A stretch of DNA of 64,000 bases from Candidatus Magasanikiibacteriota bacterium (GCA_041666745.1 JBAYGI010000003.1:12782-76781); one strand, 5' to 3'. Positions 8,261 to 63,303 are shown, numbered from the stretch's first letter. The notes: generated from the letters alone by a model not told the origin. A program made the numbers and translations.

Positions 8261-9152
8261 TTATTCTTAATTTGGCACTACGACTGCTAGGATTGTTTTC
8301 GACTTCTTCCTCGCTAGCTATAATGGGTTTTTTGTTAATAATTTTTAATGTTTTATTTTGATTTTTTACAAAAAATTGTTTTACTATTCTATCTTCCAAA
8401 GAATGAAAGGTGATCACTGCCAAACGTCCGCCAACAGATAAACTTTCGATTGCTTGCGGTAAAACCTGTCGTATCACTTCCAATTCTGAATTGACCGCGA
8501 TGCGTAACGCTTGAAACACTTTGGTCGCCGGATGAATACCACCAACCCAAGGAATTTCTTTTTCAGTTTTTAATTTACGACGATAAACTCCCAAAATAAT
8601 TTCTACCAATGGCGCGGTATGTTCAATTTTATTTACCGCTCGTGATCCAACAATTTCTTTGGCAATTTCTCGACTTAATTTTTCCTCCCCATAAAAACGC
8701 AATATTTTTTCTAATTCGGCTTCACTGTATTGGTTGATAACATCCGCCGCACTCTCACCCGACACACCGTTGTAGCGCATATCTAGCGGTTCATCGCCTT
8801 CAAAACTGAATCCCCGACTACGTTCTTTGAACTGTGGTGTTGACCATCCCAAATCTATCAAAATTGCATCGGCATTTTCAAAATTATTTGCTTTGATTAT
8901 TTCTTTTAAATTTACAAAGTTGTCTCGAACAAAAATTACCTGACTACCAAAATTATATAAATTTCTTTTGGCTCTAAATAGTGATTCCGGATCAGCATCA
9001 ATGCCCAGTAATTTTCCTTTTGGACCGATTTTTTCCAAAATCACTTCGCTGTGCCCTGCATCACCCAAAGTACAATCGATCACTTTCGCGCCTGCTTTTA
9101 GTTGTAAAGAATCCACTACCTCCCTTAACAAAACCGGTACATGCCTAGACAT
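8247..9152 (-). CDS. rsmH: 16S rRNA (cytosine1402-N4)-methyltransferase RsmH
   Basis: 301 aa; MSRHVPVLLREVVD N-terminus and SAM-binding motifs of RsmH/MraW. Confidence 0.9.
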   Translation of the reverse strand: MSRHVPVLLREVVDSLQLKAGAKVIDCTLGDAGHSEVILEKIGPKGKLLGIDADPESLFRAKRNLYNFGSQVIFVRDNFVNLKEIIKANNFENADAILIDLGWSTPQFKERSRGFSFEGDEPLDMRYNGVSGESAADVINQYSEAELEKILRFYGEEKLSREIAKEIVGSRAVNKIEHTAPLVEIILGVYRRKLKTEKEIPWVGGIHPATKVFQALRIAVNSELEVIRQVLPQAIESLSVGGRLAVITFHSLEDRIVKQFFVKNQNKTLKIINKKPIIASEEEVENNPSSRSAKLRIIEKL

Positions 9153-9169: not shown

Positions 9170-9619
9170 TTAAACTCCCAGCTCGGCCATCTTTTCAGCG
9201 ATTTCATTACTGTTGGTTTCAGTGGTTGTCTTGTAAGCTTTCCATTTGGCTTCATCCCAAATTTCCGCGCGATTATACAAACCAGCCAAAACAACATTTT
9301 TCTTTAAACCGGCAAACTCTCGTAAATATTCCGGTAAAACTACGCGTCCTTGCTTGTCGATTTCCACTTCCATCGCACCAGCCAACATCAAACGAGAAAA
9401 AGCACGACTGTTGGATTGACTAAACGGTAGAGTGGCCAATTTTTCGGCCAATTTTTCCCATTCGGTTTTGGTGTAGAGGAATAAACAGTTGTCTAATCCG
9501 CGTGTGACTACCGCACCCTTGGACAAATCACGACGAAACTTGACTGGAATAGCCAAACGTCCCTTATCGTCTAAGTTGTGCGCGTATTCACCGATAAACA
9601 TAATTTGTAAATTCACCAC
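9170..9619 (-). CDS. mraZ: Transcriptional regulator MraZ
   Basis: 149 aa; duplicated DxxxR-containing MraZ motif (MFIGEYAHNLDDKGRLAIP). Confidence 0.9.
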   Translation of the reverse strand: MVNLQIMFIGEYAHNLDDKGRLAIPVKFRRDLSKGAVVTRGLDNCLFLYTKTEWEKLAEKLATLPFSQSNSRAFSRLMLAGAMEVEIDKQGRVVLPEYLREFAGLKKNVVLAGLYNRAEIWDEAKWKAYKTTTETNSNEIAEKMAELGV

Positions 9620-9745
9620 TTTCCTCCACTACATTCCATTTTATACCACTTTGAAACATTGGTCAACACTTTATACCATTTTAATCTTGGCTAAGACACA
9701 ACAAAAAAACCACATAAAAAAATATGTGTGGATAACTATTTTGTA

Positions 9746-9775
9746 TTGACTTTAAAACACAGAACAAGGTAAAAT
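9746..9775 (+). promoter_or_regulatory. Candidate sigma70-type promoter (TTGACT-N18-TAAAAT) upstream of high-GC island 1
   Basis: Hexamers read directly; imperfect inverted repeat agaacaag/cactgttct overlaps the -10; region is also divergent promoter space for mraZ. Confidence 0.4.
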
Positions 9776-9824
9776 CATTTCACTGTTCTTTCGGCGATTT
9801 TTCTCGCCAACGGAGGGACACTAG

Positions 9825-10055
9825 ATGACCAACGCGCGCTTCTTTGCTAGACCAATCGAAGACATGGCCATTCATGTCGTAGCAGTGGCTGCCACCACGG
9901 TGGTCGCTCCGATTGTCGCGGCCGGCGTCTTTAGCCTAGGCGTCCAGGACGCGGCGAAGGCGATCAGCGACAAAGCCACGAAGCTCTGCCGAAAGGCGAG
10001 CGGGATGGTCATTGACATGATCCCTGATCTGCCCTACGACGACTATTGTGATTAG
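9825..10055 (+). other. High-GC (~58%) island containing a 76-codon Ala/Val-rich ORF; either a foreign small membrane peptide gene or a structured non-coding RNA
   Basis: GC composition and codon usage (gcg/gcc/ggc) unlike flanking ~33% GC DNA; GGAGGG SD 8 nt upstream of ATG; hydrophobic segment IHVVAVAATTVVAPIVAAGVF. Confidence 0.3.
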
Positions 10056-10104
10056 GTGCGATGACGACGCATTGATTGGCGTCGCCGCGCCCTCCCGCCT
10101 ATAT

Positions 10105-10150
10105 GCGCGCCGGATCCTTCAAGGACCGGCGCGCTTCCATTTTTGGTTGA
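10105..10150 (+). terminator. Strong GC hairpin plus T-run (rho-independent terminator) closing island 1
   Basis: gcgcgccgg-a-tcctt-c-aagga-c-cggcgcgc followed by ttccatttttggttgattttt. Confidence 0.55.
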
Positions 10151-10305
10151 TTTTTGTTTGGGTAGTGTGTATAATAGACGGTAATCATAACCACCTTGTG
10201 AATAAAAATTATTGAAACTATTTTGTTTTGTTTTAGTCAAATTTTTAGCAAGTTGGTTTATCAGTAGTTAGGCGACATACGATTTTTATTAAAAAACTGG
10301 AAACA

Positions 10306-10314
10306 CCCCCCCCC
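10306..10314 (+). repeat. Homopolymeric poly-C(9) tract 16 bp upstream of the 10330 start codon
   Basis: Nine consecutive C in a 33% GC genome; candidate slipped-strand phase-variation site. Confidence 0.8.
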
Positions 10315-10329
10315 TTAACCACTAGCGTT

Positions 10330-10971
10330 ATGGAAAACGAAATCCAAATCGGCCATGAGCCAAAACAAAATTGGTTATTGAAGCGAGTAAAAAAATATCA
10401 AGTTATTACTTTCACGTTTGGCTTCCTGCTCCTCAATCAACTTACAATGATTTTTGTATCTTATTTTGCCGATAAAAATTTATTTGTAAAAAATTTTGCC
10501 CTGAATATTTGGTTTTGGGCAATCGGCATACCGATAATTTACTTTCTACAATGGTTATTAGTTATTTGGGTAGCATCAAAGTTCTCGAAGGAAACATTAA
10601 AACAAAAATTTTCAAGACACCCCATAGCCACAATTATTCTTTTTATTTTGTATGTGACTAACTTACCATATAGATTATCTGAGTACGGTGGTGGCATCGT
10701 CGCTATTTTCGAAACAATAATATATTACGCATTTGTATCTTTTCTCTGGTGGCTATTGATTTGTTGGATTAGTAGTAAAATTTTTAAAAAACAGCGATTT
10801 GACTGGAGTTGGTATAAAAAAATAATTGAAAAAATTTTTGTTTTAATGCCGATTATCTACAAAATTATCCTTGGCTTAATAGTGGCGTTGGCATTATTCT
10901 TTGTCTTATTTATTTTAATAACAGTAGTTTTCAAATATTCAGGCCAAGATTTAAAAATGCTGTTTTCTTAA
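10330..10971 (+). CDS. Polytopic membrane protein (hypothetical), cassette A gene 1
   Basis: 213 aa, 5-6 predicted TM helices; no recognisable family. Confidence 0.45.
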   Translation: MENEIQIGHEPKQNWLLKRVKKYQVITFTFGFLLLNQLTMIFVSYFADKNLFVKNFALNIWFWAIGIPIIYFLQWLLVIWVASKFSKETLKQKFSRHPIATIILFILYVTNLPYRLSEYGGGIVAIFETIIYYAFVSFLWWLLICWISSKIFKKQRFDWSWYKKIIEKIFVLMPIIYKIILGLIVALALFFVLFILITVVFKYSGQDLKMLFS

Positions 10972-10988
10972 TCATTGACAAAATCACT

Positions 10989-11249
10989 ATGAGAACAATC
11001 GGCAAAATAATCGGCTACCTAATGTGGATCGGAGCAGGAATCCTAATGTTTATTTTTTGGCTCCTGGCCATGAGTAAATGGTTGGGTTTACTCGGTACAA
11101 TACTCGCTTTCGTTTTAAGTCCTGGCTTAGTTATATTTCCGATAGTATTTTGGATTGTCGAGGGGGTGTTCCCAGCTTTCTATTTCATAATTTGGGGCTT
11201 TGGTATAGTTGGGTTGATAATCGGCGGCATTTCGAGTCGCAACGATTAA
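10989..11249 (+). CDS. Small membrane protein (hypothetical), cassette A gene 2
   Basis: 86 aa, three hydrophobic helices. Confidence 0.4.
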   Translation: MRTIGKIIGYLMWIGAGILMFIFWLLAMSKWLGLLGTILAFVLSPGLVIFPIVFWIVEGVFPAFYFIIWGFGIVGLIIGGISSRND

Positions 11250-11254
11250 TAAAA

Positions 11255-11424
11255 ATCGTACATCGCCTAACAGCGTGTATCTGGTTCAACAGATTTGGCT
11301 CATTAAATTTTAAAGGGATGCCAAATCTGCCTCACTCAAATTTCGCACACACTTATTGAAAAATTTAAGGATGTGTGCGAAACTTCAGATACACGCGAAC
11401 GTTGTGCGAAATTGTGAGGCAACC
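11255..11424 (+). repeat. attC-like composite palindrome (junction cassette A/B)
   Basis: GCCTAAC-agcgtgtatctg ... cagatacacgcg-aacGTTgtgcg; nested palindromes cagatttggc/gccaaatctg and tttcgcacac/gtgtgcgaaa. Confidence 0.55.
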
Positions 11425-11452
11425 TAATAAATTTTAATTCCGCTTTTTTCTT

Positions 11453-11758
11453 ATGAAGTTCGATAAACTAGTTCGGGATAATATCCCCGATATTATAAAA
11501 AAAGATGGTAAGGAGCCGTTTACTCGTATTGCCGAAGATAAAGAGTTCGAGGAAGCTTTGACGCGCAAATTGCACGAAGAGGCCGGCGAATTTTTAGAAA
11601 ATCCAAGTGTAGAAGAGGCCGCCGATATTTTAGAGGTCTTGCATGCAATTTGCGCTCTGAAAGGTGTGGACTTACAAACTTTAGAGGAAGTTCGCCAGAA
11701 AAAAGCGGAAGAACGTGGAGGTTTCACGCAAAGGATTATTTTGGATAGAACAGAGTAA
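11453..11758 (+). CDS. MazG-like (all-alpha NTP pyrophosphohydrolase / HisE-like) nucleotide pyrophosphohydrolase, cassette B
   Basis: 101 aa; KLVRDNIPDII ... EExxEExxE ... DILEVL pattern of MazG/PRA-PH superfamily; GC ~42%, higher than flanks. Confidence 0.65.
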   Translation: MKFDKLVRDNIPDIIKKDGKEPFTRIAEDKEFEEALTRKLHEEAGEFLENPSVEEAADILEVLHAICALKGVDLQTLEEVRQKKAEERGGFTQRIILDRTE

Positions 11759-11760
11759 TA

Positions 11761-11890
11761 CCGGGGCGGTTGCCTCACAACTTCGTACAACAGCGCATAT
11801 GCGGTTACGCTACGCTCCACCCAAATTCTGATTCGCTTCGCTCAACAGAACTTCGCATGATGCGCATACGTTAGGCAACATACTGGAAAC
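11761..11890 (+). repeat. attC-like palindromic junction cassette B/C
   Basis: ggttgcctcacaacttCGTACAAC-agcgcatatgcg ... gatgcgcatac-GTTAGGCaacatactggaaacc. Confidence 0.5.
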
Positions 11891-11947
11891 CTCTCGAATA
11901 AGACTTAAAATAATTATCGTAATTTATTTATTCAACTAACTTAAAAT

Positions 11948-12202
11948 ATGGAACGAAAAGATTATCCAACACCGTTTTCAGAAGCCGAAACAAGAAGTTT
12001 TTGGAACGGGCTTAGTAAAGAACAAAGGATAGATTTTTTAAAAAAAGCTAACCATTCACTCGGCGCTTCTGAAACCGATCTTATGCCTTGCGCTGATTAT
12101 GATTGGGATTCTATGTCTGAAAATGGACTAACTACGCAACTTAAGGAACATTTACCTAAAATCGGTAGATTTTTTGAAGCCGAGCTTAAGGCGGGACAAT
12201 AA
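11948..12202 (+). CDS. Hypothetical 84-aa protein, cassette C
   Basis: ORF bracketed by ~50-bp imperfect inverted repeats (11869-11920 vs 12207-12248); no family recognised. Confidence 0.4.
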   Translation: MERKDYPTPFSEAETRSFWNGLSKEQRIDFLKKANHSLGASETDLMPCADYDWDSMSENGLTTQLKEHLPKIGRFFEAELKAGQ

Positions 12203-12206
12203 ATTA

Positions 12207-12262
12207 CGAGAATTATTTTAAGAGTCGGTTTCCAGTACATTGCCTAACAGCGTGTATACAGC
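12207..12262 (+). repeat. Right terminal inverted repeat of cassette C plus conserved GCCTAACagcgtgtat motif
   Basis: Reverse complement matches 11869-11920; 16-mer gcctaacagcgtgtat also present at 11265-11280. Confidence 0.55.
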
Positions 12263-12312
12263 ATTAAAACGATGCATACCCGCGGCGCATTCGGCGAAAT
12301 AACAATAAATTT

Positions 12313-12549
12313 ATGTCTAAACATTTATTATTCATGGAAATAAAAGACAAGGTTCTGTTAAAAAATAATGGATGTTGCCCACTTCACTACTTGCCTCATA
12401 AATTACCTATTGGCGAACCTATAATAAATGAACCTTGTCATACACACACAATATACTGGAGAAGATGGCACCATAACTTTTTTTGTCAAATGCTTAATTG
12501 CCCAAATTATCCAGCTATGAGGAAGAGCAAAACTCTAGAGACACACTGA
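12313..12549 (+). CDS. Cys/His-rich 78-aa hypothetical protein (possible zinc binding); coding status uncertain
   Basis: CCPLH...CHTHT...HHNFFC...CPNYP; no SD inspected. Confidence 0.25.
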   Translation: MSKHLLFMEIKDKVLLKNNGCCPLHYLPHKLPIGEPIINEPCHTHTIYWRRWHHNFFCQMLNCPNYPAMRKSKTLETH

Positions 12550-12590
12550 ATAAAATCCAGAATCTATTTTAAACAGACTCAAATCCCCCT

Positions 12591-13148
12591 ATGAAAAAAT
12601 ATCAAAATGTTTGGGAGTCAGCCCTACCATATTTAAAGAAAGGCATTAACAAAAACTTTATCATTCATACTAAGGGGGTTGTTAAAGCTATGGAAATGAT
12701 TCTCAAGAAGGAAAAAAGCGATCCGGATATCTTGATACCGGCTGCCATACTCCATGATGTAGGCTGGGCAAATGTTCCAAAAAAATATCAATGCACCACA
12801 AACAAAGCTGATAAGCTTCATGGCATGAAACTTCATATTGAATTGGCTCCAGAAATTATCAAGGAAGTTCTTTGGTCGGTAAATTATAAAATTTCTCAAA
12901 TCAATGAAATAATCGAAATTGTTCAAGCGCATAAATTTAGTAAGCCAAGAAAATTAAGTAAGCAAATATTGATTGATGCCGACCAACTTTCCGATGCTTT
13001 CAAAGAACAATTTTATAGTGACGTAAAAGCCTACAATTCTACACCTGAAAAGCTTTATAATTTTAGAATGAGTGATAATATTTTCTATACGAAAGTGGCA
13101 AAAGATATTTTTTTGAAACAAATGAAACAGAGAAAAAGTGAGTTTTAA
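12591..13148 (+). CDS. HD-domain phosphohydrolase
   Basis: 185 aa; H...HD motif (HTKG ... ILHDVGW) and downstream D. Confidence 0.6.
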   Translation: MKKYQNVWESALPYLKKGINKNFIIHTKGVVKAMEMILKKEKSDPDILIPAAILHDVGWANVPKKYQCTTNKADKLHGMKLHIELAPEIIKEVLWSVNYKISQINEIIEIVQAHKFSKPRKLSKQILIDADQLSDAFKEQFYSDVKAYNSTPEKLYNFRMSDNIFYTKVAKDIFLKQMKQRKSEF

Positions 13149-13194
13149 AATATGAAGTTTAAAAAAGATAAACATAAATCTGATAAAAATTAAA

Positions 13195-13230
13195 AACAAA
13201 AAAACCACACTAACTAAGTGTGGTTTTTGA
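13195..13230. terminator. Bidirectional rho-independent terminator between convergent genes
   Basis: A-run, hairpin ccacac-taactaa-gtgtgg, then T-run. Confidence 0.6.
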
Positions 13231-13238
13231 TATGGCAA

Positions 13239-13655
13239 TTAACTCAAACCTAAAATTGGTCTTATTTGTATGAAATCATTTTCTAACACTACGACTCTAT
13301 CGTCAAGTTTTCTTACATTGTGAGCATTGACCAGTGTTTCTTCATCTTTTTTCTTATACATACCAACAAACGCATCCAAAGTATTCATGATTTTTGAGAT
13401 ATCTTCCTTGTTAACCATAATGTCCATCATTTTTGAAATATCATCTTTGGTAGCCATAATATCTATGATTTTTGAGACATCTTCCTTGGTGACATCCAAA
13501 CTTTCTTTAATTCTATCCAGATGCTCGGTATGATCAGCCACTGTACGAGCTATAAGACCCAGCTGATCTTCTTGATCATCAAAACGTTTGTTGACTTCCA
13601 CAAAACTAACGTCGTGTTCTTTGAGTTTTTTGATAACTTCCTCCATATAAATCAA
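13239..13655 (-). CDS. Hypothetical protein with three tandem 12-aa repeats (KEDxSKIxDIMxx)
   Basis: 138 aa; 36-bp DNA tandem repeats at ~13370-13480. Confidence 0.45.
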   Translation of the reverse strand: MIYMEEVIKKLKEHDVSFVEVNKRFDDQEDQLGLIARTVADHTEHLDRIKESLDVTKEDVSKIIDIMATKDDISKMMDIMVNKEDISKIMNTLDAFVGMYKKKDEETLVNAHNVRKLDDRVVVLENDFIQIRPILGLS

Positions 13656-13660
13656 TATTG

Positions 13661-13999
13661 TTATTTATGTTCATGCCCGCACCCACAAGAATCTTCCACT
13701 TTGTCCTCGCACTTCCCTTCTTCACAACATTTTTCCTCACATTTTTTGTCACCTTTACAACTGCAGACACATTCGCCACCGCAACAACTTTTTTTGCTGA
13801 AAATATAAATATATAATATTTCCAAAATACCAACTGTGTTTACCAATAATAAAACCACAAACCAAGCCACATTTCCCTTTCTGGCCGCCAACCACAAGGC
13901 TCTGCCTTTCCAATAAAATAGCCAAACAAAAAACGCGACAAAAAATATACCAAAGAAACCAAAAAAACTACCGACTCCGTAACCCATAAAATTTTGCAT
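13661..13999 (-). CDS. Small membrane protein with C-terminal cysteine-rich (metallothionein-like) tail
   Basis: 112 aa; two to three TM helices then SCCGGECVCSCKGDKKCEEKCCEEGKCEDKVEDSCGCGHEHK. Confidence 0.5.
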   Translation of the reverse strand: MQNFMGYGVGSFFGFFGIFFVAFFVWLFYWKGRALWLAARKGNVAWFVVLLLVNTVGILEILYIYIFSKKSCCGGECVCSCKGDKKCEEKCCEEGKCEDKVEDSCGCGHEHK

Positions 14000-51659: not shown

Positions 51660-52460
51660 TTAACCATTATTTATAGACACATATTTTCCTTTGTGAAAAA
51701 CAGATTGTATCTGATACTTTTCTTCAAGTTTTGCATCAACCAACACTATTTTATCCAAAACATTGTGCCTCCTATATACAATATTATTTTCCGCCACATG
51801 TATTGGTTTTCCACCAGAGCTTAGCCCGTTCCCATCTACCCTGAAAATACCAGCACTATTCTTGGCTAACACAAATTTATCGGAAACTTTTGCAGCACGC
51901 ACGCACCAATCAAAATCACCGACTATTTTGAGTTGTTCATCAAATGGACCGACTCGGTTGTATAAATCTTTAGTGAACATAAAAAATGGACCACAGCGCA
52001 TAGATCTGGTAAATTCACGTTTATCATATTTAACCGATCGATCAAACCTAAATTTTACTGGCAATGACCAATTTTTAATATTCAAATACCAGATTATCAA
52101 AAAAGGGAAATAAACTAAATCTACCCCTTGTTTGAAAAGCTCAGCCGCCTCTACAATTGCTTTTGGGTTACGCCTATCATCCACATTCCAGAATCCTACA
52201 GCCTCGCCTTTGGCCAATTCAACCCCTCTATTCCAAGTAGCATAAAGTGTCTCACGAGGAACACTCACAAAATTAAACCATTTTTCTTGTTTAAACAGTT
52301 CACCGAAAGTTTTTTCCGCTTCGGTAGGATCGTTGGCGATAGCGATCAACTCAAAATCAACATTGTGATCAATTAAATATTTTGCTACCTTTACTAATCT
52401 TTTACTAAATTTATCCAAGTAACGATCTGTTCTATATAGTGATGTAACTATGCTAATCAT
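51660..52460 (-). CDS. GT-A fold glycosyltransferase-like protein
   Basis: 266 aa; N-terminal ISIVTSLYRTDRYL and downstream acidic motifs. Confidence 0.45.
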   Translation of the reverse strand: MISIVTSLYRTDRYLDKFSKRLVKVAKYLIDHNVDFELIAIANDPTEAEKTFGELFKQEKWFNFVSVPRETLYATWNRGVELAKGEAVGFWNVDDRRNPKAIVEAAELFKQGVDLVYFPFLIIWYLNIKNWSLPVKFRFDRSVKYDKREFTRSMRCGPFFMFTKDLYNRVGPFDEQLKIVGDFDWCVRAAKVSDKFVLAKNSAGIFRVDGNGLSSGGKPIHVAENNIVYRRHNVLDKIVLVDAKLEEKYQIQSVFHKGKYVSINNG

Positions 52461-52465
52461 AATTA

Positions 52466-53302
52466 TTATTTTAATTCACTTAATAATTTTATTTTCTCTT
52501 TTTGATAATTTTTTTCGATACTCTCTAGAGTGATATCATTCTCTAGTTCAAATAATTTAACATATACCATAAACCTAAAAAAGGCATACTCAAGAGCAAC
52601 GATTAGTCCTCTCATACCACATTTATAACTGTATTTATAATACACTACAAAATATCTAAGCATTGCACCTAACATATAGGACAAACTAAATTTATCTCCT
52701 GCTTCAAATTTTTGATGTGCTTCAATTTGTGCATAGCGCCAGTGATTTCCTAAAAATTTATCTAAATTATAAAGACTAAAATGACGAATAGCATTCTCTT
52801 GCTTATCATCCAAATAAACAATCTCAGTTTGTTTGCCCAAATATTTACCCATACCGTGAATGCGGTTATTAGAAAAATCTACCACTTCTTTTCTAAAAAA
52901 ATTAGGATAAAAACATTTGTTCATCAACTTATTTGTAACACCCAAAAGATACGTATAGATTGGAATAAATACATATTTTTTATTATCCTGAAATGATATT
53001 TCTACCATTTTTTCTAATAGCTGCTTGGGAAATATATAATCAGCAAAACCCCAAAGAATCCAATCGTTTGCAGCAATTGATTTAATAAAATCAAAAGTCT
53101 CTTGATTTTCTACATCTAATTTCCCAGTTTTTGGTCTGACAAAATATTTTGCTCCTGATTCTTCTGATATCTTTTTGGTATTATCAGTACTACCATCATC
53201 CAATATTAAAACCTCGCCATAATTTAATAAATTTTCAATTACATATTTTATCCTTTTTTCCTCATTGTAAGTAAAAATGATAAAAGATATTTTTCCTTTC
53301 AT
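52466..53302 (-). CDS. GT2 glycosyltransferase
   Basis: 278 aa; SFIIFTYNEE ... LILDDGSTDNT. Confidence 0.75.
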   Translation of the reverse strand: MKGKISFIIFTYNEEKRIKYVIENLLNYGEVLILDDGSTDNTKKISEESGAKYFVRPKTGKLDVENQETFDFIKSIAANDWILWGFADYIFPKQLLEKMVEISFQDNKKYVFIPIYTYLLGVTNKLMNKCFYPNFFRKEVVDFSNNRIHGMGKYLGKQTEIVYLDDKQENAIRHFSLYNLDKFLGNHWRYAQIEAHQKFEAGDKFSLSYMLGAMLRYFVVYYKYSYKCGMRGLIVALEYAFFRFMVYVKLFELENDITLESIEKNYQKEKIKLLSELK

Positions 53303-53314
53303 AAAGTTAAAAAA

Positions 53315-55978
53315 TTATTTTATAAATAGCATTATACTTGCGTCGCCGATAACTTTTTGAAATTTGGAATTCAAAATTTTTAGCACCTGAACATTATCAT
53401 AGTCTTGAATAACAAAAACTTTTATCTGTTGGTCGCTATTAATATAATCTAACAGCCGATTAAATTGATATATAAAAAACAGATCAATTGCTGATGGTAA
53501 ATCAATTGCACACACGGTATTTGTTTCGTCGTAATACATTCCATCATATGCACCTGCCAAAATTAAAATACGTTCTCCAGGAATTGTATGTTGTTTGATA
53601 AAATTAATATTTTTTACAACATCTAAATTGTCCGGTAAAGTAAGATCCTGAAATGTTCTGTGCGTATTGTAGATAAAAAATTTTGTATTATAAGCCATAT
53701 CAAATACTGGTAGAACCAAAACATAGGCTAGCGCAATAATAACAAAATATAGGCCAACATTTATTTTAGTTCCAAGAGCGGTATAATTTCGAAGTGCGAT
53801 AACAAGATCATCAAGAAACATTGGTAGAATTAAAAATACAACAAATGATGGAGCAACTAATGTCAAACTGTGCGAACGACCTTCAAAATAAGCAAACAAT
53901 CCAGTGCCTATTATCGATAAAATAAAATATAGCGGCCCTTTTATATTTTCTGATTTCTGTACCAAACATATTATCGAAAATAAAAGAGAGATAAGATAGA
54001 CTAAAACGACCAGATACCATATGTGGGGGAAAATTGGCAATGGAATTAAGAAATAACCCGCATAAAACATTTTTGAATATTGAAAAAATAAATTAATATT
54101 AGGTATACTGCCAGAATAAAATATGTAATAAAAAGAAAATAAGGACAAACCCAACAACAAAGAAGCAACACCGATTAAAATGTGTTTGCAAATTGATTTA
54201 TATATATCTGCTAATTTTTTGCTTTCCCTTTTCCAAACTTCTAGATAAAGTAAAAATAGATTCCACGAAATAAAAACGACTATGCCGGAATCAAAGTTCC
54301 AAAATATTGCTAGAGTGGCTATAAAATGACCCAATGCGTATAAATATCGGTTGGGCTTTTTTAAATATTTAACTGAAATAAATAATATAGCGGATGGAAA
54401 TAACATTCGTATAGGCAAATACTGAAGATACTGATTGTAGATTCCATCTTTGAACATGTGTGAAAAGTTTGAATAGCCCAAAACACTTATAATTCCTAAC
54501 AAAGAAAAAATTTTTCTTTTGATACTACTATTCAAAAAATAAAATAAGCACAAATAACAAATCAATACTAAAATACACATCACAAACGTAAATTTAGTTA
54601 CTCCAACACCTATTAAATTAAAGACTGGTTTTAAAATAAGTGGAAATAAGCCATATAGACTTGGTACTTGTTGAATCAATATTTTACCATGGGCAATTTG
54701 AGTTTGAGGAAAATAGACTGGATCAAAATGATAATAATCTAAATTTCCTGCTAATGATGAAATATTAAAAAAAACTGTAAACACTAAAAGTATCACAAAT
54801 TCGATAGTTAACACTAAGGAAAGTATTTTTTGATATCTATCTTTAACCATCAAATGGACAACTAAAGGAAAAACTATGAAAGAATATGCTACAAATCCAA
54901 AAATAGAACTCGTGAGTGAAAACTTCGTATAAAAAAAGTCGCTCATTGACAAGCCGAGATAAATGAGTGAAGGCAGTCCTAAGATGGTAACTAAGGCTAA
55001 AAAAGAATTGACTTTACCAATTATTTTTTTTGATAAATTTTTTAATAATTTATTGGATAAATAATAATTAATTATTAAAAAAAACGGAGAAGCCAAGACA
55101 CACAATAAATATTGAAACTGCTCTATCGGCTTAGGAATAAAAGCAATGATGATAGAATCTAAATATATTTTTTTAGCTTGACTGATAATATTCGAAATGT
55201 CAGGATGAAAAAAAGTATTGATTAAATACGCCAAAAAAAATTCCGAAGTAATTGTAAAAAATATTGTAAGATATACTGCTTGATAATTATGCTGTTTTTC
55301 GTTCTTTTCTAAACCTTCTTCAGTAAACGTACCAATTCTAATATAGAATAAATAATATAAATATATTAAAAATAACCAAATAGAAATAGCCAACGACGGC
55401 CAAATTGCTTGCCCTAAAGTATTGCTGGTCAAATAACTGTCCCCTTTCCAATTTATTAATGATTTAAAAAAAACGTTTTTTACTGGAATTTTACTTCTTT
55501 CCAGAGACAATATGAAAGGTGAGGCTAAAATTATATTATTTTCTCCAATTCCTACATATCCAAAAGTAGACGACGTAACGTCTATCCACTTTTCCAACAA
55601 ATCACTTCGTGTATATTGAAAATCTTTTTCCCCTATAGATACAAGGACATCCTTAATTTTAGACAGATGAGAAGCATCAATTACCAATGCTACTCTTTCA
55701 ACAAAAACACCGCCGATCTCCCATGTGCTTGTACTAACAAAATTCATTCCTGTGTTATTGTGAGCTCTTGCCAATTTAGCTACAGGATTAAAATATCCTT
55801 TATTCTCACCGCTTGCATTTATAGTTACTTTAATATTTGCCAATGGTTCACGACTACTTACCGTCATAATACCTTTACCAGCGGTGATAATTACTAAAAA
55901 GAAAAAAATTAATAATGGAAAAAAAATAATATTTTTTTTGAAAATTTCAAACAAATTATTCATTTTAAAATCTTTCAT
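53315..55978 (-). CDS. Large polytopic membrane protein, paralog A (candidate GT-C-type glycan polymerase/transferase)
   Basis: 887 aa; N-terminal anchor plus ~150-aa extracytoplasmic domain, more than 14 TM helices, C-terminal soluble domain; motif FPQTQIAHGK..QQVPSLYGLFPLILKPVF shared with paralog B. Confidence 0.6.
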   Translation of the reverse strand: MKDFKMNNLFEIFKKNIIFFPLLIFFFLVIITAGKGIMTVSSREPLANIKVTINASGENKGYFNPVAKLARAHNNTGMNFVSTSTWEIGGVFVERVALVIDASHLSKIKDVLVSIGEKDFQYTRSDLLEKWIDVTSSTFGYVGIGENNIILASPFILSLERSKIPVKNVFFKSLINWKGDSYLTSNTLGQAIWPSLAISIWLFLIYLYYLFYIRIGTFTEEGLEKNEKQHNYQAVYLTIFFTITSEFFLAYLINTFFHPDISNIISQAKKIYLDSIIIAFIPKPIEQFQYLLCVLASPFFLIINYYLSNKLLKNLSKKIIGKVNSFLALVTILGLPSLIYLGLSMSDFFYTKFSLTSSIFGFVAYSFIVFPLVVHLMVKDRYQKILSLVLTIEFVILLVFTVFFNISSLAGNLDYYHFDPVYFPQTQIAHGKILIQQVPSLYGLFPLILKPVFNLIGVGVTKFTFVMCILVLICYLCLFYFLNSSIKRKIFSLLGIISVLGYSNFSHMFKDGIYNQYLQYLPIRMLFPSAILFISVKYLKKPNRYLYALGHFIATLAIFWNFDSGIVVFISWNLFLLYLEVWKRESKKLADIYKSICKHILIGVASLLLGLSLFSFYYIFYSGSIPNINLFFQYSKMFYAGYFLIPLPIFPHIWYLVVLVYLISLLFSIICLVQKSENIKGPLYFILSIIGTGLFAYFEGRSHSLTLVAPSFVVFLILPMFLDDLVIALRNYTALGTKINVGLYFVIIALAYVLVLPVFDMAYNTKFFIYNTHRTFQDLTLPDNLDVVKNINFIKQHTIPGERILILAGAYDGMYYDETNTVCAIDLPSAIDLFFIYQFNRLLDYINSDQQIKVFVIQDYDNVQVLKILNSKFQKVIGDASIMLFIK

Positions 55979-56011
55979 AATATTATTAAAAATATTTTTA
56001 CTATTTAAAAA

Positions 56012-58681
56012 TTAGTTTTCAAATAATATCATACCCGTACCGGTGACTTCTTTTTTAAATTTGGTATTTAAAATTTTTAAAATTTTTTCGTCGTTGTAAT
56101 CAGAATTAACGAAAATCTTTGATTTATTACCAGCGTCGAGATAATTCAATAGCAAATTATACTGATATTTAAAATTCCAATCCACTACAGATGGAAAATC
56201 AATTGCGCAGACTGTGTTTGTTTCACCATAATAAGTAGCGTCATAAGCGGCTTCTGGGGTAGCTAGTATTAAAATTCGCTCACCCGCTATTGTGTGATGT
56301 TTAATAAAATTAATATTTTTATTGATATTCTGATTAACTGGGTAATACAATTCCTTGTATGATTGGATGGAATTACTAATAAAATATTTAATATTTACTA
56401 TAATATTTACTGACGGTAATAACAAGAAAAATAATAGGATGGAGGTTATAAAACACGAATATACCACAATGTACTTATCAGTTTTTTTAAGAGAATACAC
56501 AATTGGTAAGTAATCATCCAACAAAAGAGCTAGTATTAAAATTGAAACAAAAGAAGAATCAAACAAAATAGCATTGAGTGCTCTACCTTGAAAATAAATA
56601 AATGAACCAAATCCTACAATAGACAGGATAAAATATAGTGGCGCTTTACTGTCATCCTTGTTTTTAATGACACAGATAAGAGACATCAACAACGACAACG
56701 TATAGATAAAAATTATTAAATGCCACATGTTTGGAAAAATCGGCAATGGATTCATACTAAAACCATTGTAAAACTCTTTTGAATATTGAAAAAACAAACT
56801 AATATCCGGCAAACCACCAAAGTGATATATATAATAAAATGACAACAACACCAAACCAGTCAACAAGAAACCGATACCACGTAACACGTGCTTACAAACG
56901 GACTTTATTACATCTAAAGACTTTTTATCTCCCCTTTTCAGTATTTCTAAATAAAGCAAAAATAAATTCCACGATATAAAAACGACTAAACCGGAATCAA
57001 AATTCCAAAATATTGCCACTGTTGCAACAAAATGACCTATACCATACAAACTCCTATTGGGATTTTTTAAATATTTAGCAGAAATAAACAATATTAGACT
57101 AGGAAATATTATGCGAATAGGCAGATGCTGGTAATTGATCTTATAGTTGAGACCAGCGGCCATTTGAGGAAGATGAAAATAATTTATAATATTTAACACG
57201 CCTAATAGTGGAATAATTTTATTATTAGTGGAAATTTTTAAAAATAATAAAATGAGAAAATAACAGCTGAAGATTATCACACCCATGACAATAGTAAATT
57301 TAAAAATTCCTAAACCTATAATGTCAAAAACAGGTTTTAAAATAAGCGGAAACAAACCATACAAACTAGGTACTTGCTGAATTATAGTTTTACCTTGAGC
57401 AATTTGTGTCTGGGGAAAATAGACAGCATCAAGATGGTGGGCATCATAACTTCCAACTGGTGACGATATAGCAAAAATAACAACAGAAAACAAAACAAAG
57501 GCCAATAAAACAGACAGAGTATTATAAACCCATCCCTGATATTTATTTTTTATAAGAAAATAAGAAAAAATAGGAAAAATTAAAAAAGCATAAACAGAAA
57601 ATCCAAAAACAGAATTTAATAAAGGAGGTACATAAAGAAAATTCCACATCGATAAAGATAAATAAATATAGGATGGCAAACCAATAAAAGTGCCAACTAC
57701 TAATAAAATATTTATTATATGCAATTTGTTGAGTAAAAATCGATTAACTATTTTTACGGATAAATAATAATTCACTAATAAAAGAAATGGTAAAAACATG
57801 ACACCTAGGATATATTGCAGGTTCTCTGTTGGTTTAGGAGTAAAACTTAAAACTATCTTATCTAGATATATTTCTTTGGCTTGATTAATTATATTTAAAA
57901 TGTTTGGATGATAAGAAAGTTTAATTAAACACATCAATAAATATTCGCTAATAAACGTAAAAAATAGAACGACATAGAATACAGTAAAATCAAATTGTAT
58001 TTGTTTAATATTTCGCCCTTCACTGGTCGGCGATAATGTTTCTGTATATACCAAAACAATAATATAAAAAAGGTACAGGAAAAAAGAGATAATAATAGAT
58101 GGCAACACCGCTTGTAGAACAGTGTTGTATGTTAAATATTTATCACCACGCCAGTTAATTATGGAACTAAAAAAATCTTTCTTTACAGGGATTTTGCTAC
58201 GTTCTAAAGCAAGAGCATATGGTGATGCTAAAGTGATTGCACTGTTGTCCATAGCAACTGAACCAAATGATTCAGAAGTGACTCTTTCCCATTGAGAGAG
58301 CAACTCATCTTGACTATAAATAAAATTTTTATCATCAATAGCGACAGTAACTTCCTTTATTTCTGATAATTGAGACCGGCTGAACGCTAAGGCGATTCGT
58401 TTTACAAAAACTGCGTTGACTTGCCAAGTGTTGACACCAGTTTTAATCAATTTAATGTTATTACCGGCCCTAACTAGTTTTGCCGCCACATCAAAATCAA
58501 CTGGTTTATTATCGTTAGTATTAATAATTACCTGTACATTTGCTAACGGCTCACGACTGCTGACTATTTTTAAACATTTACCGACAGAAACTACCGACCA
58601 GAAAAAAATAAATAACAGAAAAAACAATTTTAAATTTTTTTTAAAATATAATATTATTTTCTGTAAAATATTTCTATCCAT
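56012..58681 (-). CDS. Large polytopic membrane protein, paralog B (tandem duplicate of 53315-55978)
   Basis: 889 aa; same architecture and multiple conserved blocks (SSREPLAN, SLERSKIPVK, HxDxVYFPQTQIA). Confidence 0.6.
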   Translation of the reverse strand: MDRNILQKIILYFKKNLKLFFLLFIFFWSVVSVGKCLKIVSSREPLANVQVIINTNDNKPVDFDVAAKLVRAGNNIKLIKTGVNTWQVNAVFVKRIALAFSRSQLSEIKEVTVAIDDKNFIYSQDELLSQWERVTSESFGSVAMDNSAITLASPYALALERSKIPVKKDFFSSIINWRGDKYLTYNTVLQAVLPSIIISFFLYLFYIIVLVYTETLSPTSEGRNIKQIQFDFTVFYVVLFFTFISEYLLMCLIKLSYHPNILNIINQAKEIYLDKIVLSFTPKPTENLQYILGVMFLPFLLLVNYYLSVKIVNRFLLNKLHIINILLVVGTFIGLPSYIYLSLSMWNFLYVPPLLNSVFGFSVYAFLIFPIFSYFLIKNKYQGWVYNTLSVLLAFVLFSVVIFAISSPVGSYDAHHLDAVYFPQTQIAQGKTIIQQVPSLYGLFPLILKPVFDIIGLGIFKFTIVMGVIIFSCYFLILLFLKISTNNKIIPLLGVLNIINYFHLPQMAAGLNYKINYQHLPIRIIFPSLILFISAKYLKNPNRSLYGIGHFVATVAIFWNFDSGLVVFISWNLFLLYLEILKRGDKKSLDVIKSVCKHVLRGIGFLLTGLVLLSFYYIYHFGGLPDISLFFQYSKEFYNGFSMNPLPIFPNMWHLIIFIYTLSLLMSLICVIKNKDDSKAPLYFILSIVGFGSFIYFQGRALNAILFDSSFVSILILALLLDDYLPIVYSLKKTDKYIVVYSCFITSILLFFLLLPSVNIIVNIKYFISNSIQSYKELYYPVNQNINKNINFIKHHTIAGERILILATPEAAYDATYYGETNTVCAIDFPSVVDWNFKYQYNLLLNYLDAGNKSKIFVNSDYNDEKILKILNTKFKKEVTGTGMILFEN

Positions 58682-58693
58682 ACCTATGGCTTT

Positions 58694-59392
58694 TTATTTA
58701 CTAAAACGCAATTTAATTATTGTATAAATATAAGATAAAATGAAAACAAATAAATTTCTTTTGGTTTTACCAAAAATTCTCTGCTTAAAACAATACGGCA
58801 ACTCTAATATCTTTAAGTCACTTTTATTTCTTTTTAATTTTAAAAATATTTCTTCTACAATATCAAAATTATTACATTTCAAAACTATTTTTTTTAATTG
58901 ATCAGTGTGATACAGTTTAAAGCTGTTTGAAACGTCTTTGCACTTTAAATTTAAGACTACGGAATATATAACGTTTAGTATCAAACTCATTATTATTAAA
59001 ACCTTGTTGTTTTCAGTTTTTCCTCCAGTCACATAACGTGAAGCAACTACGACATCGTAATTAGACCGACTGGCAAATAAATCTACAATAAATTCTGGGG
59101 TATGAGAACCATCTGCGTCCATAAATATAATATTTTTACCGAGCGCCAATTTAATACCAGTTCTTACAGCATCACCATAATTATTGCCTCCCTCTCTATT
59201 GATATATTTAACCACATTCTCTTCACAAACACTCTCAGTCTTATCCATAGGTCGCTGAGTATCTACGACAATAATTTCGTAAGGTACTAACAATTTTTCT
59301 ACTGCAAGATGAATACGTGGTAATAATAGTTTTAAATTGTCTTCTTCTTGATAGGCAGGAAGAATAATACTTAATATAATATTTTGGGTCAT
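58694..59392 (-). CDS. GT2 polyprenyl-phosphate glycosyltransferase (GtrB/ArnC-like)
   Basis: 232 aa; ILPAYQEEDN ... IVVDT ... DADGSH. Confidence 0.75.
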   Translation of the reverse strand: MTQNIILSIILPAYQEEDNLKLLLPRIHLAVEKLLVPYEIIVVDTQRPMDKTESVCEENVVKYINREGGNNYGDAVRTGIKLALGKNIIFMDADGSHTPEFIVDLFASRSNYDVVVASRYVTGGKTENNKVLIIMSLILNVIYSVVLNLKCKDVSNSFKLYHTDQLKKIVLKCNNFDIVEEIFLKLKRNKSDLKILELPYCFKQRIFGKTKRNLFVFILSYIYTIIKLRFSK

Positions 59393-59393
59393 A

Positions 59394-60422
59394 TCATTTC
59401 ATTATTTCACCAGACCAATTTAACATTTTTTTAATACCGGTAACTTTGTCAATCTTTGGAAACCAAGCAATGTCATTTTGAATTTTAGTTAGATCAGCAA
59501 TGAATATTTTTTGATCACTTATTCGTACTGGTAATTCAATGTATTTTATTTTAACTTTTAACTCTTTTTCTAATAAACCAAATAATTCTAAAATAGACAA
59601 ACTATTTTCCATGCCACCGCCAATATTATAGCATTGTCCAGCTGTTTTATCAATGTTGAGAACAGCCGCAAAATACAACCGAACCATATCATCAGCGAAC
59701 AAAATATCTCTTACTTGTTTACCATTCCCGGAAATCGTAAGTCCTGAATAATTTGGATCTTTTACAAATTTTAACGCTTCCTGACAAAACCAACCAACCC
59801 ACCCCTGATCAGCGGTAGAGAACTGACGACCACCAAACATTGAAGAATGTCTAAACACAACGGTTCGTATACCAAAAACTTTATAATAATCAATCATATA
59901 TTGATCGGCACACCCCTTCGAACAACCATAAGGAGAAGAAAAACTTAAAGGAGTATTTTCAGACAACCCATTGGGAAAATCAGTGCTAATATAACGAGTG
60001 CTGTTTTCCTTGTAATGAACCCATTCTAAATCTCCATATACTTTATTAGTAGAAGAATATATTACAATTGATTGAGGGCTAAAACGACGAATGTTTTCTA
60101 ATAAATTTATGGTTCCCTGGGCATTAACCGAAAAATCATACAACGGGTCTTGCAAAGATGTGGTCATGGCAACCTGACCAGCGAGATGAAATACCACGTC
60201 TGGCATTTCTTCCTTTATTATTTTTTCTAACTGTTCATAATTTCTAATATCACATTCATAAAAATTAAAATGTCCATTTTCCTTTAACCAATCGAGGTTA
60301 GCACGAGATCCCATTCTAGATAAATTATCAACTACCACCAACTGATCTTTAGTGGTTGCAATTATGTGGCTAGCTATGTTTGAACCCAAAAAACCACACC
60401 CGCCGGTTATCAAATATTTCAT
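59394..60422 (-). CDS. NAD-dependent epimerase, CDP-paratose 2-epimerase (tyvelose epimerase)-like
   Basis: 342 aa; TGGCGFLGSN; HLAGQVAMTTS motif resembling the tyvelose epimerase signature. Confidence 0.55.
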   Translation of the reverse strand: MKYLITGGCGFLGSNIASHIIATTKDQLVVVDNLSRMGSRANLDWLKENGHFNFYECDIRNYEQLEKIIKEEMPDVVFHLAGQVAMTTSLQDPLYDFSVNAQGTINLLENIRRFSPQSIVIYSSTNKVYGDLEWVHYKENSTRYISTDFPNGLSENTPLSFSSPYGCSKGCADQYMIDYYKVFGIRTVVFRHSSMFGGRQFSTADQGWVGWFCQEALKFVKDPNYSGLTISGNGKQVRDILFADDMVRLYFAAVLNIDKTAGQCYNIGGGMENSLSILELFGLLEKELKVKIKYIELPVRISDQKIFIADLTKIQNDIAWFPKIDKVTGIKKMLNWSGEIMK

Positions 60423-61321
60423 ATTATTTTTTTATTTCTCTCAATTAATAACATTTTCTCTAAACCCCGCTTAATATCATAATTTGGTACCCAGCCCAAG
60501 TGCTTAATAGCAATAGTATCTGATACAGATTGCATCACTTCATTCTCACGGTAAGGCAAGGCTCCAAAATTGAGTTCGGTTACATGGTTATTAGACAATT
60601 CTTTAATAGTTTCTACCAACCATCTAATGGAAATTAATTTGTTTGTACCAATTTCATAATGAAAAAAACCATCTGCATTGTTGGTAAGATTTTTTATTAC
60701 TAACATAAATGCATCAACCACATCATCAATATAGACAAAATCTCTCTGTTGTTCACCCTTAGTCAAATTTATGCTCTTTACTTTATTTAACAAAGAATCA
60801 AAAATATTAGAAACAAATTTGGTTTTATCATCACCAGGACCGTAAAAATGCTCCAAAGCCATATTTACGCAGACAATGTCATCTTGGTAGGTTTTAAGCC
60901 AATCGATAAACTGTGCTTTAGACAAAGAATAATGACTTACTCTTTTGTCTAAAATTGTATCTGTATTAATAAAACACTTCACTTTGTTTTCTTTGCCTAA
61001 TTCCAATAATTTTAATGGTAAAATTAAATTAGCTTCAATAACTTGTAATGGTAACGATTGTTTACGCCCATAGTCAGTGGCACAATGCAAAACAACATCT
61101 ATAGGCTGATCTTTAAACACCACGGACAAATCCACTTGGTCGATGTTATAATATTTCACATTAGATAATACATCATCGATACGATGAGTGTTAGAGTAAG
61201 ATCTTTTTAATAAAATAACTTTATATTTATTTAAAATCAGACGACGCAACAGATTGCTACCTAAAAACCCCGTACCGCCTGTTATAAGTATTGTCTTGGC
61301 TATAATTAGTTTTTCATCCAT
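60419..61321 (-). CDS. SDR-family NDP-sugar reductase (CDP-abequose/paratose synthase-like)
   Basis: 300 aa; TGGTGFLGSNL; context next to RfbH and the epimerase. Confidence 0.5.
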   Translation of the reverse strand: MDEKLIIAKTILITGGTGFLGSNLLRRLILNKYKVILLKRSYSNTHRIDDVLSNVKYYNIDQVDLSVVFKDQPIDVVLHCATDYGRKQSLPLQVIEANLILPLKLLELGKENKVKCFINTDTILDKRVSHYSLSKAQFIDWLKTYQDDIVCVNMALEHFYGPGDDKTKFVSNIFDSLLNKVKSINLTKGEQQRDFVYIDDVVDAFMLVIKNLTNNADGFFHYEIGTNKLISIRWLVETIKELSNNHVTELNFGALPYRENEVMQSVSDTIAIKHLGWVPNYDIKRGLEKMLLIERNKKII

Positions 61322-61325
61322 AAAA

Positions 61326-63302: not shown

Positions 63303-63303
63303 A

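Follow-up and report, generated by a model that had tools for sequence, protein, structure and literature searches.

An array of three gene cassettes in a Magasanikbacteria genome, probably part of an integron-like system of CPR bacteria and DPANN archaea

Classical integrons and clusters of attC sites lacking integron integrases (CALINs) are tandem series of mostly single, co-oriented and promoterless open reading frames (ORFs), each followed by an imperfect RYYYAAC ... GTTRRRY palindrome. The crossover of classical integrons lies at G|TT, with the R' box belonging to the next cassette; within a lineage their sites are much alike, the bottom strand is favored for folding, and the recombinase gene points away from the array, with an attI-like half-site between the two. 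Arrays free of an integrase are frequent. Recombination at G|TT of R' gives, in integrons, pairing between the R'' and the R' of one and the same module, and the IntI-specific domain of the integrase contacts extrahelical bases (VchIntIA-VCR structure). Integrons of archaea have been reported from uncultivated, often ultra-small lineages including Nanoarchaeota/DPANN, mostly as CALINs in metagenome-assembled genomes (MAGs) and with diverse attCs called with standard tools; the archaeal IntIs carry the IntI-specific domain, IntI1 recombined eight of nine archaeal attCs tested, and a flow of cassettes across domains was suggested, in a study that did not treat candidate phyla radiation (CPR) bacteria (Ghaly et al. 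2022, PMC9668308). We analyzed a stretch of 64,000 nt (the window) from a MAG of Candidatus Magasanikiibacteriota (GCA_041666745.1 JBAYGI010000003.1:12782-76781; Magasanikbacteria, CPR/Patescibacteria) and find that its positions 10267-12295 are a genuine array of three mobile gene cassettes. It probably belongs to an integron-like gene-capture system that is typical of CPR/Patescibacteria and also occurs in DPANN archaea. This system resembles the classical elements in the layout of its arrays, the R-box cores, the G|TT crossover, the likeness of sites within a lineage, the signs of bottom-strand folding, the placing of recombinase gene and attI-like half-site, and the frequency of arrays lacking an integrase. 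The site family is a widespread variant in which both the build of the sites and the clade of integrases are distinct, as far as we can tell undescribed: we found no description of integrons or attC arrays in CPR/Patescibacteria in the literature, as had been supposed for such genomes from the sequence alone, with coverage that was incomplete and leaves an earlier description possible.

A reading of the window made without database searches (the sequence-only reading) had proposed three modules bracketed by inverted repeats. The quoted repeats are all present, with coordinates off by 1-2 nt in four places: GTTAGGCgacatacgatt at 10267 and aatcgtacatcGCCTAAC at 11254 flank module A, GTTGTGCgaaattgtgaggcaacc at 11401 (given earlier as 11399) and ggttgcctcacaacttcGTACAAC at 11768 flank module B, and GTTAGGCaacatactggaaacc at 11870 and ggtttccagtacattGCCTAAC at 12227 flank module C. 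ORF calls returned the genes that had been listed for the modules. A repeat finder aligned the module ends over 26 nt in A (10267-10292 / 11246-11271, 92%), 24 nt in B (11401-11424 / 11768-11791, 92%) and 22 nt in C (11870-11891 / 12227-12248, 91%), the last with an extension of 25 nt (11904-11928 / 12198-12222, 96%). The cassettes are separated by sites of the R''-L''...L'-R' form, two of them complete and one decayed (Table 1), and the ends of these window sites fit RYYYAAC / GTTRRRY (GCCTAAC...GTTGTGC, GTACAAC...GTTAGGC and GCCTAAC...). The R'' that ends a module is complementary to the R' that starts the same module, perfectly in A and C (GCCTAAC / GTTAGGC) and with one mismatch in B (GTACAAC / GTTGTGC), and it is not complementary to the R' of its own junction. 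The 16-mer GCCTAACAGCGTGTAT recurs as claimed, at 11265 and 12242 (given earlier as 12240), and nowhere else in 64 kb when up to three mismatches are allowed (0.15 expected); the degenerate R''-L'' pattern RYYYAACAGCGNRTAT has three occurrences in the window against 0.05 expected. What did not hold up was a higher GC content of the cassette genes, the array having 37.3% against 36.7% for the window and the 213-aa gene only 30%.

Membership of the window sites in a wider family was established with a covariance model (R1) built from 90 sites of other genomes and none from the window. In the 64 kb it matches only sites 1 and 2, which lie 378 nt apart. To count as a CALIN, a cluster needs two or more attC sites with gaps below 4 kb and no neighboring intI. 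The loop of site 2 bears the CCCAAATT motif. Site 3 is not detected by R1; its central hairpins are deleted and the usual GAAAT flank follows. A generic R''/R' hairpin scanner, which returned as many matches in shuffled sequence as in the window, had served as a lead only and was replaced by the model and a profile. The sequence-only reading had proposed, as a check, to fold each junction as single-stranded DNA and to look for extrahelical bases. The fold of site 1 is exceptional (z = -7.1 for the top and -7.5 for the bottom strand), whereas site 2 alone and site 3 are unexceptional and the L stem is without extrahelical bases. When the ends of a cassette are joined in silico, the bottom strand of cassette A folds at -55.6 kcal/mol versus -40.2 kcal/mol for the linear form, and that of cassette B at -35.4 versus -18.4 kcal/mol, so that the circularized junctions of the window gain 15-17 kcal/mol. 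The predicted fold of the circular junction is one long interrupted hairpin: the terminal inverted repeat leads into the R box (7 bp), and a bulge of 3 nt, the L stem and a branched loop come next.

Homologs of the MazG-like cassette protein with 70-91% identity occur in many CPR lineages, on contigs that hold runs of like sites; MazG cassettes were found in the arrays L006, L007, L009, L019, L066 and L076. A pattern derived from the sites of these arrays and scanned over one genome per species matched at least 120 genome stretches, mostly of CPR/Patescibacteria with some DPANN archaea, where we estimate from the information content about 10 chance matches. Among the 80 titles of matches listed, 49 are of CPR groups, 14 say "bacterium" only, two are Omnitrophota, three are other bacteria and four are archaea (Woesearchaeota, Pacearchaeota, Altarchaeum and Methanobacteriota). 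We collected at least 157 unique sites, and the profile made from the family gives at least 288 matches in at least 128 loci. Their consensus (alignment A1) is [NNNNAAC]A[NNNN-RTAT-NN]GG-hairpin-ACCCAWATTT-hairpin-AAA-CWTC[L']RAAC[GTTNNNN], flanked by ..ACATC|R'' and R'|GAAAT... Within the R boxes, AAC and GTT do not vary across the family; the other four positions often, not always, fit RYYY/RRRY. The remaining eight of the 80 titles read "uncultured Gammaproteobacteria" (third party annotation MAGs: L018, L030, L035, L036, L045, L047, L062 and L074), and one of these contigs has a site near-identical to a site of L006, which points to mis-binning, mislabeling or transfer of contigs with CPR-type sites.

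The L stem covaries. In the alignment, 91.7% of its cells are paired versus 73.5% in shuffles (none of 500 shuffles reaches the observed value), 210 cells are changed on both sides versus 79.5 in shuffles, and controls in which the stem was slid along give 16-52% paired. The ATAT and the G of the stem are fixed by the search pattern; the covarying positions are not. Over 135 non-redundant sites, A.C cells outnumber G.T cells by 41 to 14 (p = 3.6e-4), and folding of the bottom strand is therefore favored. In some sites L'' and L' do not correspond to each other, which gives them a chimeric look (L020:4989-5086 and L042:7164-7263 in alignment A1); such unmatched pairs may be a trace of recombination within sites.

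Pairing between the two ends of a cassette, rather than of a site, is seen across the family. Over 121 adjacent site pairs, 56 of the 121 cassettes have full complementarity between the four variable bases of R'(n) and those of R''(n+1); random pairs show it in 5.6%, and the ends of a single site in 8%. In 36% of cassettes the 20 nt beyond the R boxes are complementary at 14 or more positions, versus 1% in controls. Measured from one site to the next, and so without its attC-like site, a cassette has a median length of 688 nt, the median cassette ORF has 181 aa, and 107 of 117 ORFs are co-oriented with their array. Mobility of single cassettes is seen in an identical MazG protein (P0007) which, together with its downstream site, occurs in two neighborhoods of one metagenome. 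In L006 it lies between an acetyltransferase cassette and a cassette for a 241-aa protein; the copy in L007 has a 95-aa cassette on one side and a ribonucleotide-reductase/NUDIX cassette on the other. What the two loci have in common starts at G|TTATAT and stops at ..GAATACG|TT, so that both borders are at G|TT.

The cargo is diverse, with 94 Pfam families in 118 ORFs, and includes short-chain dehydrogenases/reductases, radical SAM enzymes, methyltransferases, NUDIX/MazG/HD hydrolases and DNA methylases. The pairing of MazG-like and HD-domain genes had been taken as a hint of a defense or nucleotide-pool function. We found no support for it: PADLOC returned only generic HD/Cas3 and weak AbiEii matches, NCBIfam gave nothing useful, and the cargo of the family is not of one kind. 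Some arrays hold cassettes of unrelated ORFs that share a homologous pair of terminal inverted repeats of about 100 nt ("aaagagggg..aagg.gtttt" / "ggagtttt..aaattcac.c.agcccctcttt"), at 2270-2400 / 3290-3350 in L006, 1280-1380 / 3490-3550 in L007 and 8290-8400 / 9060-9120 in L009; these pairs look like reusable cassette "shells". Further oddities are found in L009 (9313-9956, 11020-11979): a "cassette" of about 90 nt that has no ORF, a site with a 545-nt loop in which the opposite strand encodes a small membrane ORF, and an insertion sequence of the rve family lodged inside a cassette.

A tyrosine recombinase gene adjoins the L009 array, and with its product as phmmer query we found a homolog in 15-17 of the 120 pattern-derived loci, or up to 23 when fragments from tblastn are counted; the loci extend over at most 8 kb and often end at contig ends. 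The geometry is nearly fixed. Of 18 loci, 17 have all their sites upstream of the 5' end of the recombinase gene with the top strand pointing away from it (divergent), and the first site is 450-2400 nt from the gene in 16 of 17 loci and 5.2 kb from it in L127. In 14 of 17 loci a half-site "..TTCGCATATAAACGA|GTTRRRY|GAAAT" stands 57-95 nt upstream of the recombinase start codon; it resembles a site reduced to its L'-R' half, as would be expected of an attI. A sample taken from the protein side, 80 metagenomic relatives of 34-50% identity, contained six with sites, six of six upstream and divergent, and no site at any other place in those loci. The exception among the 18 is L090 (Altarchaeum sp. 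CG2_30_32_3053, MNZY01000068.1), where recombinase and sites share one strand, with the sites downstream; the protein is extended by about 70 aa at its N terminus and does not group with the array-linked clade. The sequence-only reading saw no attI in the window. It does contain an attI-like junction at the start of the array (Table 1), which resembles the family junction and has 10 of 15 positions the same as L097 (hand count).

The array-linked recombinases have 265-300 aa, a full R-K-H-R-H-Y set and an IntI-like ...SPL(D) tail. Their best solved relative is Vibrio IntI4 (2a3v, 164.5 bits, E 4e-47), followed by XerA (4a8e, 145 bits). The alignment to IntI4 breaks at residues 185-239, where about 42 aa are missing from the array-linked proteins, and in IntI1 the same region consists of insertions of 31 and 11 aa that they lack (alignment A4). 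Ten of them scored 196-234 bits with TIGR02249 ("integron integrase"), below its cut-off of 265, the best match always stopping at model position 176-181 of 315, whereas the IntI1 control gave 508.6 bits over the whole model. With NF040815 ("XerA/integron integrase", cut-off 220) they reach 208-245 bits, and about half of them pass. In a neighbor-joining tree, 20 members of a clade of 21 could be tested: 19 are array-linked and one has no array. Only three other array-linked proteins are placed elsewhere, among about 60.

How far do these elements depart from classical integrons? We built a proxy model of the canonical site (R2) from ten class 1 attCs of four plasmids, the arrays being fetched via attI1, with the R-box and L-box pairs as its structure. 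R2 detects four of five independent canonical attCs (26.7-66 bits) and finds nothing at E<=10 in the window and 19 CPR loci (233 kb with dozens of CPR-type sites); with filters off it gives only noise around the window array, at most 7.8 bits. R1 in turn finds nothing in 72 kb of class 1 arrays, so the two models do not cross-detect. Folded class 1 sites have a spacer of 5-6 nt after the R box and a bulged base on the R''-L'' arm of the top strand. CPR-type sites differ in having an uninterrupted L stem of 11-13 bp that begins 1 nt after R'', with a conserved excess of 3 nt (RAAC versus A) on the opposite, L'-R' arm, as we read the arms from the folds. They also differ in the invariant ATAT/GG/CWTC, in the ACCCAWATTT between two inner hairpins, and in a complementarity that extends 17-50 nt or more past the R boxes into the cassette. 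The recombinase differs from IntI in lacking the IntI-specific domain. Since that domain reads the extrahelical bases, a recombinase without it would fit sites without such bases, and we suggest that the two absences match each other. The integron or CALIN architecture first proposed thus stands as regards cassette layout, end-pairing and G|TT borders, and not as a canonical integron, given the proxy attC model, the spacing and asymmetry of the sites and the recombinase domain.

A cassette consists of one promoterless ORF (two in cassette A) and a structured recombination site of 90-145 nt, with the top strand [..ACATC][R'' NNNNAAC]-A-[L'' 11 nt, ..RTAT..GG]-hairpin-ACCCAWATTT-hairpin-[CWTC L']-RAAC-[R' GTTNNNN][GAAAT..]. 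The mechanism that we propose would run as follows. The bottom strand of this site would fold as single-stranded DNA, and a tyrosine recombinase would exchange strands at G|TT of R'; because of the position of this exchange, a cassette would start with TTNNNN and end with the G of the next R'. Upon excision the two ends would close into one hairpin made of a terminal repeat of 17-50 bp, the 7-bp R box, the 3-nt bulge and the L stem, and the circle junction of cassette B would read ...GCGCATACG|TTGTGCGAAATTG. Insertion would take place at the attI-like half-site beside the recombinase gene, with the cassettes read from an upstream promoter. The probable catalyst would be the dedicated clade of recombinases of 265-300 aa, kin to integron integrases and XerA.

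Beyond the array itself, we lean slightly toward a broader interpretation, namely that this is a previously unrecognized class of integron in CPR, DPANN and other ultra-small lineages. Its integrase would be sister or ancestral to IntI and would lack the specific domain either because it was never acquired or because it was lost. It would recognize a folded site of different build (R-L bulge, extended end pairing, ACCCAWATTT loop), and the system would be a main route for swapping metabolic and accessory genes, including across domains.

A plainer view is that the array is an ordinary CALIN whose standard attCs could be used by any classical integrase, the short recombinase being a housekeeping Xer that happens to lie nearby. 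The R boxes fit RYYYAAC/GTTRRRY and GCCTAAC/GTTAGGC are class 1 cores; the G|TT crossover, the co-oriented ORFs and the attI-like junction are integron traits; CALINs are common, and most relatives of the short recombinase have no array. The archaeal attCs of Ghaly et al. are very diverse, and eight of nine tested were recombined by IntI1 (PMC9668308). CPR-type sites were also found on contigs labeled Woese-, Pace- and Altarchaeota. Neither the accessions of our four archaeal contigs nor the site motifs were found in the supplements of that paper that were searched. We nevertheless regard this view as unlikely: the models R1 and R2 fail to recognize each other's sites, the L stem stands 1 nt after R'' with the extra bases on the arm opposite to that of class 1, no IntI with the specific domain was found next to such sites among the 120 + 80 loci, and the geometry held by 17 of 18 loci together with the structure of the clade argues against chance adjacency.

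Inverted repeats around each module are also reminiscent of pdif modules, known from Acinetobacter plasmids, in which inverted recombination sites enclose a small gene module that a Xer-type recombinase moves. The array-linked recombinases share with XerA and other Xer proteins the length of 265-300 aa and the R-K-H-R-H-Y catalytic set, and NF040815 scores them as XerA-like (208-245 bits, as above), so one might suppose double-stranded 28-bp sites of XerC/D type acted on by the housekeeping Xer. Xer enzymes act at a single double-stranded dif site in the resolution of chromosome dimers, and pdif sites are 28-bp, double-stranded and dif-like, alternate in orientation, and have neither hairpin covariation nor an attI-like entry point. 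CPR-type sites are instead structures of 90-145 nt with a covarying internal stem, uniformly oriented within an array, and do not show the 11-6-11, alternating layout of pdif. Covariation of L'' with L' within a site would not be needed at a double-stranded protein-binding site, and the excess of A.C cells points to a folded single strand. The array-linked recombinases are tied to multi-site arrays with integron geometry, score higher with IntI4 than with XerA, and form a clade of their own apart from the other low-GC Xer-like proteins. We consider an explanation by Xer/dif modules very improbable. Least credible of all is that the sites are intergenic repeats of the repetitive extragenic palindrome (REP) or miniature inverted-repeat transposable element (MITE) type, or terminator-like repeats, which spread on their own and bracket genes incidentally. 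They are intergenic, palindromic and repeated, site 1 forms a very stable hairpin and the window has no recombinase, all of which would suit such repeats. A dispersed MITE/REP family, named in the sequence-only reading as what would overturn it, was not found, the repeats being confined to the array in 64 kb with two copies only. The sites keep to one strand per array and elsewhere form ORF-spaced clusters, their R' pairs with the R'' of the next site and not with its own, an identical unit of ORF and site has been transplanted with exact borders, no T-run follows the stems apart from a weak minus-strand match at 11870-11854, and the sites are tied to one recombinase clade.

Several points weigh against our own preference for an integron-like system with its own recombinase. 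In the window, the third site is decayed, site 2 alone folds no better than shuffles (z = -1.1 and -1.7), and no recombinase lies within 74 kb of the array. About 20% of the cells at R-proximal positions of the L stem are unpaired across the family, and the MazG cassette shared by L006 and L007 has an R'/R'' pair with two mismatches. The link between recombinase and array is correlative, and the gene is seen in only about 15-20% of array loci because these are short and often at contig ends. Sites accompany only 5 of 44 low-GC relatives of the recombinase, the remainder of which are probably ordinary Xer proteins, and the tree is a plain neighbor-joining tree without support values. R2 is a proxy on ten class 1 sites, and the IntegronFinder model or HattCI may behave differently. 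Site family membership, covariation, the pairing of cassette ends, cassette mobility and the geometry of recombinase and array are shown by computation; single-strand folding, the exact cleavage point, the catalyst and expression are deduced from them as probable features.

That the window lacks an integrase, as had been noted, agrees with all our searches: Pfam maps show no tyrosine recombinase from -10 kb to +64 kb of the window (74 kb), and tblastn with 13 recombinases against the window gave a best E of 0.012. The activity of the window array is therefore unproven. It is in a CALIN-like state, with an attI-like start and without a recombinase gene. We incline somewhat to regarding it as a fossil; movement in trans, served by a recombinase gene at some other place in the genome, is nearly as likely.

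The array is part of a larger insertion. In a relative (L218), 166 nt (9610-9776) stand in place of the 4,055 nt at 9735-13790 of the window, with flanks that are 69-73% identical and a syntenic gene order (recJ, lepA, murJ, a beta-CASP gene, a DUF5652 gene, mraZ, rsmH and clpB; about 70% protein identity). Because of this empty site, the array, the 78-aa and HD genes, a 138-aa ORF and a GC-rich segment are taken as one accessory island. The nearest relative in the collections is at about 70% protein identity, so the comparison is possible for the whole island and not for single cassettes; L217 is rearranged and gave no information. Downstream of the array, the 78-aa and HD genes had been suspected to be older cassettes. 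They do share its island, without recognizable bounding sites, and may be old cassettes or other cargo.

Table 1. Features of the accessory island and cassette array, in coordinates of the window.
Feature	Position	Strand	Remarks
Lineage-specific island, ~3.9 kb	9736-13789		Between DUF5652 gene and mraZ promoter; empty-site comparison
76-aa ORF, 58% GC	9825-10055	+	In 60% GC segment 9800-10140
Promoter-like site TTGATT-17-TATAAT	10147-10175	+	Points into array; consensus match only
attI-like junction, array start	10248-10285	+	..GTTGGTTTATCAGTA / GTTAGGC (R' box, 10267-10273) / GACAT
Cassette A	10268-11401	+	Two membrane-protein ORFs, terminal inverted repeats, own site 1
Cassette A ORFs	10330-10971 (213 aa), 10989-11249 (86 aa)	+	ORF calls
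attC-like site 1	11265-11407	+	GCCTAAC-A-GCGTGTATCTG ... CAGATACACGC-GAAC-GTTGTGC; model R1 58.1 bits, E 6e-12
Cassette B	11402-11870	+	MazG-like ORF, terminal inverted repeats, site 2
MazG-like NTP pyrophosphohydrolase ORF, 101 aa	11453-11758	+	Homologs so named by their sources; weak PRA-PH Pfam match only
attC-like site 2	11785-11876	+	GTACAAC-A-GCGCATATGCG ... CGCATgATGCGC-ATAC-GTTAGGC; model R1 64.3 bits, E 1.8e-13
Cassette C	11871-12295	+	84-aa ORF 11948-12202, terminal inverted repeats 11870-11928 / 12198-12248
Decayed site 3, 54 nt	12242-12295	+	R'' GCCTAAC and L'' intact, L' 8/10, R' mutated to ATTCGGC
Cys/His-rich ORF, 78 aa	12313-12549	+	Inside island, co-oriented with array, no site after
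HD-domain protein (Pfam), 185 aa	12591-13148	+	Inside island, co-oriented with array, no site after

CPR/Patescibacteria make up a large share of bacterial diversity, with genomes of about 1 Mb, patchy metabolism and poorly described mechanisms of gene exchange. Part of this metabolic patchiness would be explained by a system dedicated to the capture of cassettes with very diverse enzymes as cargo, which, if our reading is true, would also let genes pass between CPR bacteria and DPANN archaea in shared habitats. A working integrase without the IntI-specific domain, acting on sites without extrahelical bases, would challenge the view that both define the mechanism, and an origin of integrons from Xer-like recombinases becomes directly testable; should the class be as new as we lean to think, it would show integrons before the head that reads extrahelical bases had evolved. 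IntegronFinder requires the C-terminal signature of IntI, and such elements would therefore be called CALINs at best. Integron censuses of environmental genomes may thus be systematically incomplete.

On the attI-junction side, where complete elements have the recombinase gene, the window has the 60% GC segment and AT-rich DNA. The segment contrasts with a genome of 37% GC and carries a GC-rich hairpin followed by a T-run downstream of the 76-aa ORF; the ORF has no family match in Pfam, NCBIfam or PADLOC, and tblastn found no remnant of a recombinase in the segment. The promoter-like site is 92 nt upstream of the attI-like junction and, judged from its sequence, could be an equivalent of the integron promoter Pc. 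At the other end of the island, the 138-aa ORF (13239-13655, minus strand) contains three tandem 39-nt repeats at 13376-13493, 75-83% identical to a reference copy, with a repeated peptide ..DISKI(M/I)... Farther along, the region 52000-64000 of the window has 27-31% GC versus about 38% elsewhere and holds glycosyltransferase and sugar-modification genes as well as two family-less proteins of about 890 aa.

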